A DNA stretch of 64,000 bases, taken from Candidatus Poribacteria bacterium (GTDB taxonomy: Bacteria; Poribacteria; WGA-4E; WGA-3G). This document shows, piece by piece, positions 1,932 through 55,574 of this stretch (its first letter is position 1; every line of letters starts with the position of its first letter). Both the position numbers and the translations under genes were made by a program. The DNA lies in NCBI GenBank assembly GCA_965198235.1, contig OZ240248.1, forward strand, positions 1,888,001 through 1,952,000, given 5' to 3'. The notes under the pieces are model-generated. The model was not told the DNA's origin. It saw only the letters and a program-made list of their open reading frames with translations, and made no database searches.

Positions 1932-2049
1932 TATAGTAAAGCCCGAAAATATGTAGACAGTTTTCAGTGGACAGCTCCGCCACCGCCGCTGGCGAGGTTT
2001 GTAACCTCGCCCTTCTGTCGGTGTATAGGTAATTGTGGGTTTTACTATA
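1932..2049. mobile_element. MITE-like element, ends TATAGTAAAGCC...GGTTTTACTATA, with internal REP hairpin GGCGAGGTT-TGT-AACCTCGCC (empty copy)
   Basis: Terminal inverted repeats; homologous copy at 16611-16795. Confidence 0.75.
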
Positions 2050-7849: not shown

Positions 7850-8092
7850 ATGCATATTGATATACATGAACAGACTGAAGACCGCTTGGCTCAGTTAGTC
7901 AAACGCGCCATTGCAGGAGAAAAGATTATTTTAGATAGCAATGGGAAATCTGTTGCCAAACTGGTATCCTTAAAGCAGGACAACAAGAAACCACGCCGCG
8001 GTGGACAGTGGAAAGGAAAAGTGAAGATAGCCGAGGATTTTGATGAACTCCCTGAATCTTTTATGGCACCCTATTGTCAGGAAAACGAATGA
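7850..8092 (+). CDS. Phd/YefM-type antitoxin with DUF2281-like tail
   Basis: LAQLVKRAIAGEKIIL...GKSVAKLV and R.GG.WKGKVKIAEDFDE.LP motifs. Confidence 0.8.
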   Translation: MHIDIHEQTEDRLAQLVKRAIAGEKIILDSNGKSVAKLVSLKQDNKKPRRGGQWKGKVKIAEDFDELPESFMAPYCQENE

Positions 8093-8124
8093 ATCTGCTA
8101 TGGTGGCTTGCTAACTCACCCAGT
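8089..8124 (+). pseudogene. Remnant of a VapC/PIN toxin
   Basis: ATGA overlap with antitoxin stop; reads MNLLWWLANSPS (typical MNLLLDTHxLLWWL with LDTH lost), then cut off by a MITE. Confidence 0.6.
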
Positions 8125-8504
8125 ACGTAGGTTGGGTTGAACGGGAACCTCCTAAAAATCGCACATAGAAAATGATTTTCGGGGGGCATCAAGAAACCTA
8201 AAATTACCGAAATACGAGTGAAACCCAACACATTCTCACGCCTACAGTGCCTGGATTGTTGGGTTTCGTTATATCTATCTACACCAATGGAACATCGAAA
8301 CGCGATATCCTCTGTATAAACGAGATGGACCTTTGTCTTTCATTGCTCAACCTGGGGGAAAAAGAAATACGCAGAAATACCCTATCAATACGCAGGGAAA
8401 TCCACAGAAATACCCTATCAAAAACCCCTATCAAAAACCCCAAGCAAAAACACCCCTATCAAAAACCCCTACGTCTACTTGAATTTTTATTATCGAACTC
8501 ACGT
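8125..8504. mobile_element. MITE/REP composite (CGTAGGTTGGGTTGA...TCAACC[insert]CCTACG), filled copy lacking its left end
   Basis: Colinear homology with 28315-28604; about 115 bp extra sequence at 8353-8467. Confidence 0.8.
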
Positions 8505-10762: not shown

Positions 10763-11242
10763 ATGGCGAACACCTATACTCAACTCTATGTACATATCGT
10801 GTTTTCTGTAAAAGGTAGACACGCACTTATTCCCGAATGTCACAAAGCAGAACTTCATAAATATATCACTGGCATCATCACTAATAAGAAACAGAAATTG
10901 ATTCAAATCAATTCGATGCCAGATCACATCCATATCTTGGTTAGTATGACTCCGGATACTGCCCTGTCTGGTTTGGTGAAAGATATTAAAGTAAATTCGA
11001 CGCGCTTTATCAATCAGAAACGCTGGACTGCGGGGCAATTTGCGTGGCAAGAGGGGTTTGGTGCGTTCAGTTATTCCTATTCTCAGATACCTGAGGTCGC
11101 TGCATATATTGAAAATCAGGAGACACATCATTCACGACGGTCATTTCGTGAGGAATATCTTGCGTTCTTGGAGCGTTTTGGGGTTGTGTATGATGTAAAG
11201 TACGTTTTTGATTCAGTTGCAGATCTCCCACCTGAAGAATGA
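10763..11242 (+). CDS. tnpA: IS200/IS605-family HUH (Y1) transposase TnpA, REP-associated (RAYT-like)
   Basis: HIVFSVK.R, DHIHIL (HUH), F.WQEGFGAFS, YI.NQ..HH; bracketed by inverted pairs of palindromes; no tnpB. Confidence 0.9.
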   Translation: MANTYTQLYVHIVFSVKGRHALIPECHKAELHKYITGIITNKKQKLIQINSMPDHIHILVSMTPDTALSGLVKDIKVNSTRFINQKRWTAGQFAWQEGFGAFSYSYSQIPEVAAYIENQETHHSRRSFREEYLAFLERFGVVYDVKYVFDSVADLPPEE

Positions 11243-16610: not shown

Positions 16611-16795
16611 TATAGTAAAGCCCGAAAATATGTGCACATAGAGGATTTAGGGACCTCCCGCCTCGCTGGCGAGGTTTCCTTGGGGAAATCCGCAGAAATA
16701 CCCTATCAATACGCAGAAATACCCAAGCAAAAACACCCCTATCAAAAACACCTCGCCAACTCTAATGTGTATAGGTAATTATAGGCTTTACTATA
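16611..16795. mobile_element. MITE-like element TATAGTAAAGCC...GGCTTTACTATA, filled copy
   Basis: Homologous to 1932-2049 but with about 70 bp inserted in the REP hairpin. Confidence 0.8.
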
Positions 16796-28314: not shown

Positions 28315-28604
28315 ACGTGAATTTCGACTTAAGCGCGTAGGTTGGGTTGAACGGAAATGGACTAAAAAACCGCCCCCAGAAAATGATTTTCAAAATTCAT
28401 CGAGAGACCTGAAATCACCAAAATACGAGTGAAACCCAACGCATTTTCATACCTCCAGTGCTTGAGTGTTGGGTTTCGCTATATCTAATTATACGAATAG
28501 GTCATCGAAAAGTAGAATTCTCTGTATAAACAAGGTAGATCTTGGCCTTCTACCGCTCAACCCAACCTACGTCCACACTCGCAATTTTATTATCGAACTC
28601 ACGT
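28315..28604. mobile_element. MITE/REP composite, ends ACGTGAATTTCGA / TCGAACTCACGT, inner CGTAGGTTGGGTTGA...TCAACCCAACCTACG (empty copy)
   Basis: Nested inverted repeats; homologous to 8125-8504. Confidence 0.8.
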
Positions 28605-36026: not shown

Positions 36027-36316
36027 ATCCGCCTGCGCCGTTGTTGCAGGCTGCCGTTTTGAGTAAAATTAAAAGCCGTAGCCCGTAATGTAATGGAGGG
36101 GTTTTTGCTTGGGTGTTTCTTCAGATCTACGGAAGATAACGTGAAATCCCAAACCCGCCTCAACGAACCGCAAGGAAAATTAAAAAAACCGCAAGGAAAA
36201 ATTCAATCCTTGTGAATCCACCAAACCTGTAGCCCGTAACGTAGTGGAGGGCGGATCTACGGAGAGGCACTTCATTCATCAAACTGACTTGATCGAACCG
36301 CAAGGAACATTAAAAA
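36027..36316. repeat. Cluster of AACCGCAAGG-ended / GTAGCCCGTAA REP-like elements between sdhA and sdhB
   Basis: Two related units; relatives at 48043-48250, 55340-55520 and 62980-63075. Confidence 0.7.
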
Positions 36317-48048: not shown

Positions 48049-48257
48049 TTATACCTTGCGGTTCGGTCAGGACAGTTGAGAGTTGACGTTCCCCTCTGTA
48101 TATCTGAAGAAACACCCAAGCAAAAACCCCTCCGTTACGTTATGGGCTAAGGTTTTGGTTTAATGTTTCCAAAAAAAAGAAACGTTGAGACTTAACCAGA
48201 AACCTGCGCGTAACGAAGTGGAGCGCAGCCCAGAGTCCCAGAAATTAAAAATCAAAA

Positions 48258-55337: not shown

Positions 55338-55574
55338 CAATTTTTAATGATTCCTTGCGGTTAAATGGCGGGCGTTGAGTATTGATGTGCCTTTTTTAGG
55401 AGTCGCCCTCCATTTCATTACGGGCTTGGTTTTTGATTTTTTAATTAAGATGGACGCAATTCCCTTTTTAATGATACTTTGCGGTTAAATGGTGCGCGTT
55501 GAGTCCCGAACCGCAAGAGACCTAGCTTCGGGCGTTTCATAGCATCAAAACCTTACACAAGGGGGCTTATAAGC

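Follow-up and report, generated by a model that had tools for sequence, protein, structure and literature searches.

Array insert in a Poribacteria repeat element belongs to a family of very small repeat modules found throughout its genus

The closest known things to the repeats described here are the small dispersed repeats (SDRs) of Nostoc. Elhai et al. are said to have described, in 2008, SDR1-8 of Nostoc punctiforme and its relatives, highly iterated sequences of 21–27 nt lying within mini-transposons and tandem heptamer arrays; these were reportedly mobile in the recent past, as filled and empty sites between relatives would indicate, with no transposase and no known mechanism, and SDR4-6 reportedly share a hairpin. 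To our knowledge, the question of how repeats of ~20–27 nt move has stood open since that cyanobacterial description. A passage of a later citing paper states that SDR5 enters the HIP1 palindrome at one precise point, after base 3 and before base 4, and a passage of another counts the SDRs among short repeats of unknown origin. Here we analyse a window (the whole stretch of 64,000 nt, positions 1,888,001 to 1,952,000 of contig OZ240248.1) from the genome of a Candidatus Poribacteria sponge symbiont (G000; 5.17 Mb in two contigs, 48% G+C), in which a 115-nt insert, array A, interrupts one copy of a MITE (a miniature transposable element with inverted repeats). Array A is a member of a family of very small modules that are repeated and dispersed throughout the genus.

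A family of small modules in the window and across the genus

The preliminary description of the window compared filled with empty repeat copies, and these pairs hold up on alignment (Table 1). The MITE copy that carries array A matches its sister at 172 of 220 positions in the left part and at 31 of 35 in the right part; where the sister reads GCTCAACC-CAA-CCTACG, the filled copy reads GCTCAACC, then array A, then CCTACG. Tandem Repeats Finder resolves the array into a 5′ part of period 10 (8363–8413, 4.8 copies, 65% matches) and a 3′ part of period 13 (8413–8471, 4.4 copies, 83% matches). Array B sits in a second repeat family, and its host aligns with an empty sister at 55 of 60 and 38 of 42 positions, while a third host family holds single units at two sites where its sister copies carry CG(C) instead. 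The core word CCCAAGCAAAAAC (at most one mismatch) has four matches in the window against a shuffle mean of 0.09, and 0 of 100 shuffles reach four. An Rfam scan of the window returned no family at its gathering score. The orthology of the MITE copy was of no help: relatives align only from ~8506 onward, so the copy is species-specific and uninformative on the array itself.

Some of the sequencing runs containing the array A locus are labelled sponge metagenome. Two metagenome runs each have a single short-read contig that joins 8066, across unread letters, to 8505 (X2) or to 8570 (X1); a related strain or species in those sponge samples may lack the whole MITE together with array A. One metatranscriptome run has contigs over the array bins; as several co-resident genomes carry these repeats in hundreds of copies, the contigs say nothing on transcription at array A.

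Searching the whole genome for the motif, as the preliminary description had proposed, returned 256 exact copies of CCCAAGCAAAAAC in G000, against one for the reversed control. The core belongs to CCCAAGCAAAAA, the commonest 12-mer of G000, and sister words rank among the top 12-mers as well (CCCTATCAAAAAC, 112 exact copies; GAAATCCGCAGAA, 92; AATACGCAGAAAT, 47). Among relatives, each species being represented by one genome, the motif is present in all 18 same-genus genomes at 5–146 copies (reversed control 0–2), and occurs 0–2 times in 12 genomes from other genera of the same order; across the species that carry it, G000 included, the copy number thus runs from 5 to 256. A wider scan, also with one genome per species, spoke against a cyanobacterial origin, which the style of the repeats had first suggested and which we rejected. 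Among the 80 loci listed, 40 are titled Candidatus or uncultured Poribacteria, and kilobase-scale matches to G000 at 78–90% identity were found for 39 of these 40 versus 1 of the 40 with other titles. The modules are shared by more than 40 genomes from different submitters, including named Poribacteria assemblies. A literature search found no description of these words or of DNA repeats in Poribacteria, supplements being outside the search; when the 12-mer was looked for in published text, the titles among the matches listed concerned unrelated animal, virus, cancer or Helicobacter pylori topics.

We then described the family with a 10-mer vocabulary grown from seeds. The scan of G000 yielded 300 tracts of at least 17 nt, 12,750 nt in total, the tract ends taking in some host words. 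Tract lengths are bimodal, with a peak at 20–30 nt and a tail to 200 nt, and same-strand pairs of tracts are not enriched in G000 at the spacings expected of insertion sequences (ISs). The position profile around the core gives ~22 conserved bases, (G)AAA(C)(A)CCCAAGCAAAAAC(A)CC, on either side of which the sequence is random, and the minimal independent unit is ~23–27 nt, TGRRG-AAAC-ACCC-AAGC-AAAAAC-(A)CC. The base preceding AAA is nearly always G, and the terminal linkers are TGAAG, TGGGG, GGGGG, CGAAG, AGAGG and similar. Tokenising succeeded for 276 of the 300 tracts, of which 128 are single AAGC-type units and 113 are arrays of more than one module, in 70 different orders. The long tracts are polar combinatorial arrays of 10–15-nt modules, in which GAAATCCGCAG-type modules occupy the 5′ side and are followed 3′ by CCC(AAGC/TATC)AAAAAC-type modules; sub-arrays of period 10 and of period 13 occur. 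Indeed, a GAAATCCGCAG-type module comes first in 79 of the 104 mixed arrays with both module classes and last in 4, and 252 of the 276 tokenised tracts end in a CCC(AAGC/TATC)AA module. The genome-wide scan therefore bears out the earlier view of a non-random family built from a few short modules, polar and with a constant 3′ end.

The tracts consist of 45% A, 34% C, 13% G and 8% T. In any frame, the C/A strand holds 46 stop triplets in the 12,750 nt versus 328 on the complementary strand and ~330 predicted from composition by our own arithmetic, and 254 of the 300 tracts have none on the C/A strand. No secondary structure was predicted for units or arrays on either strand (minimum free energy 0 to -3 kcal/mol, z -0.07 to +1.44): a single unit scores 0 kcal/mol on both strands and arrays fold no better than shuffles. 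The inserts are thus, as first described, variable in length (17–200 nt), C/A-rich and devoid of terminal inverted repeats (TIRs) and target duplications, and they are unstructured in addition. Dispersal, mixed module order and empty sites need more than slippage.

Target sites, hosts and copies inside genes

Fifty tracts in G000 have an empty paralogous partner. In the clean filled/empty pairs the replaced bases are A, AA, TAA, AAT, CAA(C), CG or G. On entry, 1–3 nt (8 in one family, in rare cases up to 9) are lost immediately 5′ of a C-run, the replaced bases directly preceding (A)CC or ACT, and a target duplication is absent from every one of these pairs. The junction motif suspected from the window is shared genome-wide, with tracts adjoining (A/C)CC(T). 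Empty sites often resemble the array's own 3′ end (CAAACC, CCAACC, TAAACC, GAACCC), a likeness drawn from ~10 independent families that we take as a lead. At one site of one host family, fills of 25–33, 50, 73 and 83 nt occur; several host copies share one 50-nt fill, which indicates that arrays also travel with their hosts. Whole units together with a GGGG linker are found nested within other units. With no TIR, no duplication, 1–3 bases lost and a variable length, the tracts are not the end of an ordinary IS or MITE.

The preliminary description recognised three host families. That number is far too small: right flanks in G000 fall into ~104 clusters, 62 of them singletons, and include protein-coding genes. 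Hairpin-apex hosts alone form at least four families (GGCGAGGTT.., GGCGAGGAT.., GGAGCGGTT.. and GCGGTTTCC..), and further hosts are the MITE terminal repeat, a 60–70-nt element 'X' (~36 copies) and a large family ending ..GTAGATC|CG|CCCTCCATTTCATTACGGGC. The idea that hairpins of repetitive extragenic palindromic (REP) elements are the target is right in part: some targets are hairpins, and 13 units lie in REPs of the type that flanks genes for REP-associated tyrosine transposases (RAYTs), where they occupy one fixed place at the stem foot, CTATAGACAT-GY-[unit]-CCCC..GGGG (also given as CTATAGACAT-GT-[unit]-CCCCGCTGGGG). It does not extend to the family as a whole, as flanks able to form a stem of at least 7 bp were found for 42 of the 300 tracts versus ~22 for shuffled pairs and ~14 for random places. 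We rejected the hairpin apex as a general target; it is one class among several.

A crude set of open reading frames (ORFs), which spans 86.6% of the chromosome, places 214 of 297 tracts in intergenic DNA and 71 fully within an ORF, mostly at ORF ends. The split of the intergenic tracts among tandem, convergent and divergent gene pairs equals background in this ORF set, and orientation relative to neighbouring genes is weakly skewed (98 opposite versus 72 same); we did not retain a regulatory placement. No replichore or strand bias of the tracts was seen, in a weak test with an irregular cumulative GC skew.

Some features of the surrounding repeats were recorded along the way. Many host elements end ..CCCAGGAGNCCATAGTTAAAAAA directly before an ATG, for example on contig C1 near 4518190 and 2815330, suggesting that a leader or promoter-proximal element recurs ahead of many genes, the arrays lying just upstream of its AGGAG. 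Other abundant words of G000 are CCTTGCGGTTCGG (~141 copies), AGGACTTACGCA (~126), GAAACGAAGTGGAAC (~104) and CAACCCAACCTACG (~116), and several such words belong to array-carrying host elements (window 36160–36200 and 48050–48070 among others). A chain of 12-mers with 56–58 copies each spells a ~37-nt repeat resembling a CRISPR repeat, GTTTCAATCTCGTAATCGAGATGCTTTTCGTTTCAAG. Two genes similar to the RAYT-type gene of the window (Table 1) lie elsewhere in G000 and have their own hairpin variants.

We compared the age of units with that of their hosts. The core has 256 exact versus ~50 one-mismatch copies in G000 (control 1 and 13), that is, roughly 1% change per base. Units are ~99% uniform, whereas host copies are 78–93% alike (78% for the MITE of array A; 93% median flank identity by BLAST). 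Across species, orthologous sites hold no unit, one unit, drifted units or long canonical arrays. A single orthologous filled/empty pair between species was found, with locus L028 filled and G000 empty; in the 8-kb loci of the named assemblies, 17 of 60 tracts had an alignable G000 interval, and in 15 of these the host repeat is missing or different.

Eight Pfam-supported genes carry a tract: Maf, TPR/HEAT, Peptidase_C25, AAA_15, Reg_prop, guanylate cyclase/AAA_16, histidine kinase and glycosyl hydrolase 2. All eight are read with the C/A strand as sense; two further tracts, in long ORFs outside the Pfam check, have the opposite orientation. The maf, TPR, C25 and AAA_15 genes contain a 64-nt array, GGGGAAATCCGCAGAGG...CCCCAAGCAAAAAC, that is 97–100% identical among them. 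This gene-borne array (64–66 nt) is in frame, adding ~22 K/P/S/T/Q-rich residues, and is read in at least two frames, as GEIRRGNTLSKTPSKNPKQK in maf and, in the C25 peptidase, as GKSAEETPYQKPQAKTPSKNP following the signal peptide. In maf, G018 as the nearest species carries GTAGGAGGGGTTTC and a single unit at the site, an independent metagenome contig is in the same state, and the 28 other genomes compared lack the array. The TPR site holds one canonical unit in G018, one drifted unit in G036, G006, G012, G041 and G052, two or three units in G050, and only a stump in G004 and G014. The C25 site has one unit with 2–6 changes in G018, G014, G032, G006, G004 and G036, two drifted units in G052, G041, G050 and G012, and none in the more distant G013, G042 and G001. 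The gene insertions are old and as a rule drift as linker codons do; in G000, to judge from these alignments, they were rewritten with one identical long array. An identical 64-nt array at unlinked sites, together with the single unit in G018, suggests that the arrays were overwritten from other loci. The piece inserted in maf also brings GTAGGAG at one edge and CCGAT at the opposite one, bases that flank arrays in a common host family, as expected if it was copied from a donor locus. The C25 gene has, in addition, a second repeat of ~90 nt in its N-terminal region (G000 C1:2775297-2775650) that is unrelated to the arrays; it has ~10 other copies in G000 at 89–97% identity, and orthologues lack it, their alignments skipping query positions 320–447.

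Table 1. Positions of arrays, units, empty sites and associated genes (window positions unless a contig is given)
Feature	Position	Strand	Description
Array A	8353–8467	+	115-nt C/A-rich array of small modules in place of CAA, within a MITE copy's right terminal repeat
MITE copy hosting array A	8125–8504	+	ends CGTAGGTTGGGTTGAACG and GCTCAACC..CCTACG; 78% identical to its sister (220 aligned positions)
Empty sister MITE	28315–28604	+	intact site GCTCAACCCAACCTACG
Array B	16680–16750	+	~71 nt, module types of array A, in the apex of a GGCGAGGTT/AACCTCGCC hairpin, second repeat family; host copy 16611–16795
Empty sister of array B host	1932–2049	+	hairpin reads GGCGAGGTTTGTAACCTCGCC
Single unit TGAAGAAACACCCAAGCAAAAAC	36101–36123	-	third host family, between ..CCGTAGATC and CCCTCCATTACATTACGGGCTAC
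Empty site, third host family	36246–36262	-	120 nt from the filled site; minus strand CCGTAGATC-CGC-CCTCC
Single unit TGAAGAAACACCCAAGCAAAAAC	48105–48127	+	other copy of the third host family; CG(C) before CCCTCC replaced
Empty site, third host family	55400–55411	+	GAGT-CG-CCCTCC
Y1 (HUH) transposase gene, RAYT type	10775–11119 (ORF 10763–11242)	+	REP hairpins on both sides, CACCCCGTAGGGGTG then CTATGTCTATAG
Array in maf gene	G000 C1:1098218-1098283		64–66-nt array
Array in TPR gene	G000 C1:4768744-4768809		64–66-nt array
Array in peptidase C25 gene	G000 C1:2775701-2775764		64–66-nt array
Array in AAA_15 gene	G000 C1:1415070-1415133		64–66-nt array

How the modules may spread

The explanation to which we give about an even chance is DNA-templated copying between arrays by short homology, either through template switching at stalled or broken ends or through short-tract conversion. 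At an exposed site that mimics the array ends (G/GAAA at the 5′ side, AAAC/ACC at the 3′ side), a 3′ end, either nascent or broken, would pair by short homology with an array elsewhere, and part of that donor array would be copied, possibly with switching between modules, before the end returned. Such copy-and-replace would seed new sites, lengthen arrays and overwrite old ones; host MITE and REP copies would then spread the arrays further as passengers, and a reverse transcriptase (RT) would not be required. We infer copying of DNA because no RT was found in G000, identical long arrays occur at unlinked sites, donor flanks accompany the piece in maf and target bases are lost on entry. Templated, directional copying, as proposed from the window, is a fair description, since the arrays are polar with a constant 3′ end, have no TIR, duplication or structure, and form (A/C)CC(T) junctions. 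Nothing points, in contrast, to the single-copy template that was proposed with it: identical 64-nt arrays at unlinked loci, replacing the single units of sister species, argue for copying between existing arrays.

Several points weigh against such copying between arrays. The homology available is ~3–6 nt at a new site and ~8–20 nt at a resident unit, short for RecA-type conversion, and neither a responsible enzyme nor an intermediate was identified. One 13-mer is the main form in all 18 genus genomes and in the named Poribacteria assemblies; copying from any array should let species consensuses diverge, and this constancy is more readily explained by a conserved trans-acting factor or by selection. 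Re-insertion of an active element homing to resident units would account equally well for the three overwritten gene sites, and the donor-flank argument comes from a single site, maf. The target rule (a C-run at the 3′ side) is drawn from ~10 independent host families. The absence of an RVT_1 match in G000 depends on one Pfam model and a genome estimated to be 96% complete. Finally, of the two array A junctions, whose confirmation had been proposed, one is bridged. Short-read contigs from three runs of two studies (X1, 7984–8420; X2, 8125–8408; X4, 8128–8434), one of the bridging runs possibly being the source sample, cross the left junction (8352/8353) without differences, but the right junction (8467/8468) is bridged by none of the contigs listed, because contigs break within the repeat.

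A possible, if doubtful, alternative is a dedicated site-specific enzyme, one of the genus-wide Y1/HUH transposases or another nuclease or integrase, that moves the units as micro-elements. It would recognise the ends (5′ TGRRGAAA, 3′ CAAAAAC) and insert single-stranded copies by C-runs in exposed DNA, hairpin loops and feet for example, and arrays would grow as units insert into other units that hold the target. Strict conservation of the unit across species, its fixed orientation to the target, the constant 3′ end, the 13 units at one fixed position of RAYT-type REPs and the nesting of whole units with a GGGG linker would all follow, and all 41 genus genomes have the Y1_Tnp family, represented in G000 by six genes, three IS200/605-like and three RAYT-like with REP flanks. 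IS200/IS605 Y1 enzymes leave no target duplication and their elements lack TIRs, as is the case here. The units, however, have no hairpin of their own, which IS200/IS605 and REP substrates need; their 5′ linker varies in length and sequence (GAAG, TGAAG, TGGGG, CTAGGGG, TTAGAGG); 1–9 target bases are lost, versus clean insertion 3′ of a fixed tetranucleotide; and replichore strand bias is lacking, though the GC skew is weak. Nor does the number of Y1 genes track that of motif copies (10 genes and 95 copies in G008, 6 and 256 in G000, 1 and 75 in G001). The preliminary description linked the inserts to nicks made by HUH enzymes, but tracts do not cluster at the six Y1 genes of G000: only two have a tract within 3 kb, one ~1.5 kb from an IS200/605-like gene and the other, array A, 2.3 kb from the RAYT-like gene of the window, and neither tract flanks its gene. 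Another enzyme suggested from the window, a telomerase-like RT or primase-polymerase that would extend a nick in a REP hairpin by copying one short template over and over, is very improbable. In its favour are polar arrays with a constant 3′ and a variable 5′ end, a G/T strand of GGGG(T)5-type units, unit–unit junctions that resemble realignment at GGG/CCC and a consensus common to all species, as a conserved template would give. Against it, G000 has no match to RVT_1 or Prim-Pol. RVT_1 was found in 24 of 41 genus genomes and is missing from 17, including the complete, high-copy G006, G014 and G018 (118–146 motif copies). Several templates would be required for at least four module types in 70 orders, hairpins are lacking at many targets, and identical 64-nt arrays at unlinked loci with donor flank bases fit copying of existing DNA. 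We also looked for Ku and the IS110 DEDD domain, again without a match in G000; RT, Prim-Pol, Ku and IS110 were thus all set aside as responsible enzymes.

Selection for a function, as protein-binding sites, unstructured hairpin spacers or K/P/S/T-rich linkers, could keep the words uniform while ordinary recombination and hitch-hiking spread them, an explanation compatible with any model of copying; by itself we consider it unlikely. It would account for ~99% uniformity of units amid drifting hosts, for the 46 versus 328 stop triplets on the two strands (~330 expected) and for the sense orientation in eight of eight Pfam-supported genes. Copies inside genes, however, drift like neutral linkers in most species, gene orientation is only weakly skewed with an intergenic split equal to background, copy number varies from 5 to 256 among species, and the sense-strand bias is what purifying selection against stop codons would leave. 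Explanations without mobility, whether an artefact of assembly or adapters, an ordinary IS or MITE with the inserts as its fixed end, or local slippage that reached similar sequences by chance, are refuted for practical purposes. Arrays do contain tandem sub-repeats, and short-read contigs do break inside them; but contigs of three runs cross the left junction of array A exactly, the same modules recur in more than 40 genomes from different submitters, identical words lie in ~104 unrelated flank contexts with empty sisters, lengths span 17–200 nt with no TIRs or duplications, and same-strand pairs of tracts are not enriched at IS-like spacings.

A more far-reaching reading, which we put forward tentatively and hold to be doubtful, is that the genus runs an active, RT-independent system that writes a conserved ~23-nt word and arrays of it by C-runs in exposed DNA and rewrites older copies, including those in housekeeping genes, to which it would add K/P/S/T-rich linkers in frame. 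If true, this would be a very small mobile element with undescribed enzymology, possibly a new REP-associated Y1/HUH activity, and the second known case after the unexplained cyanobacterial SDRs. Every stage (empty, one unit, drifted, long and overwritten) can be found when a site is followed through its orthologues. This makes it possible to measure rates, target rules and conversion tracts, and the spread of these stages across genomes permits a candidate-gene search by phylogenetic profiling. Proteins are changed, with 20-odd in-frame residues added to maf, the TPR protein and the C25 peptidase, and REP and MITE hairpins are interrupted, which matters for the annotation and assembly of sponge-symbiont genomes.

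Comparison with known systems

Measured against the Nostoc SDRs, the Poribacteria family is alike in size and dispersal (a ~22-nt core, 256 exact cores and 128 single units), in being embedded in repeats and palindromes of which empty copies exist (50 tracts with an empty paralogous partner), and in orthologous presence and absence at the maf, TPR and C25 sites and at L028. Here, too, units adjoin one another, and no transposase or mechanism is known. The comparison was made by description, not by sequence, and it also brings out differences: the Poribacteria units are unstructured and belong to another phylum, their polar arrays reach 200 nt in 70 orders, 1–3 target bases are replaced, and arrays lie in frame in housekeeping genes and are overwritten in concert between loci.

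REP and REPIN sequences with their RAYTs resemble the units in being short, abundant and mostly intergenic, and some units have a fixed place in RAYT-type REPs. Our units, however, are non-palindromic, are found in many settings outside REPs, genes among them, and are not the sequences flanking the RAYT-like genes, which have different hairpins. MITEs and IS ends differ in that the arrays, at 17–200 nt, have neither TIR nor duplication, and IS200/IS605 elements in that the units lack hairpins, have diverse left flanks and show no replichore bias (with a weak GC skew). The likeness to telomerase products lies in the G/T strand of GGGG(T)n-type units, the variable unit number and the polarity; the arrays differ from them in lying inside a bacterial chromosome, having several module types, lacking an RT gene as far as found, and being copied between loci. 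Arrays of 10- and 13-nt period that differ in copy number at paralogous and orthologous sites recall variable number tandem repeats and minisatellites, from which dispersal to more than 100 sites with empty sisters, the varying module order and wholesale replacement set them apart.

Fork stalling and template switching (FoSTeS), microhomology-mediated break-induced replication (MMBIR) and Pol theta-type repair produce microhomology template-switch insertions in eukaryotes and E. coli, sporadically and from nearby sequence. By analogy, the loss of few target bases, short junction homology, a mosaic insert and the carriage of donor flank bases would fit such events, but here a whole genus draws on a single conserved vocabulary hundreds of times. 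The Poribacteria family is a second, apparently independent system beside the SDRs, in another phylum and with dozens of genus genomes at hand, several being complete. Its novel features are the phylum, arrays that are polar and combinatorial, target bases lost on entry, housekeeping genes with in-frame copies, and overwriting in concert.

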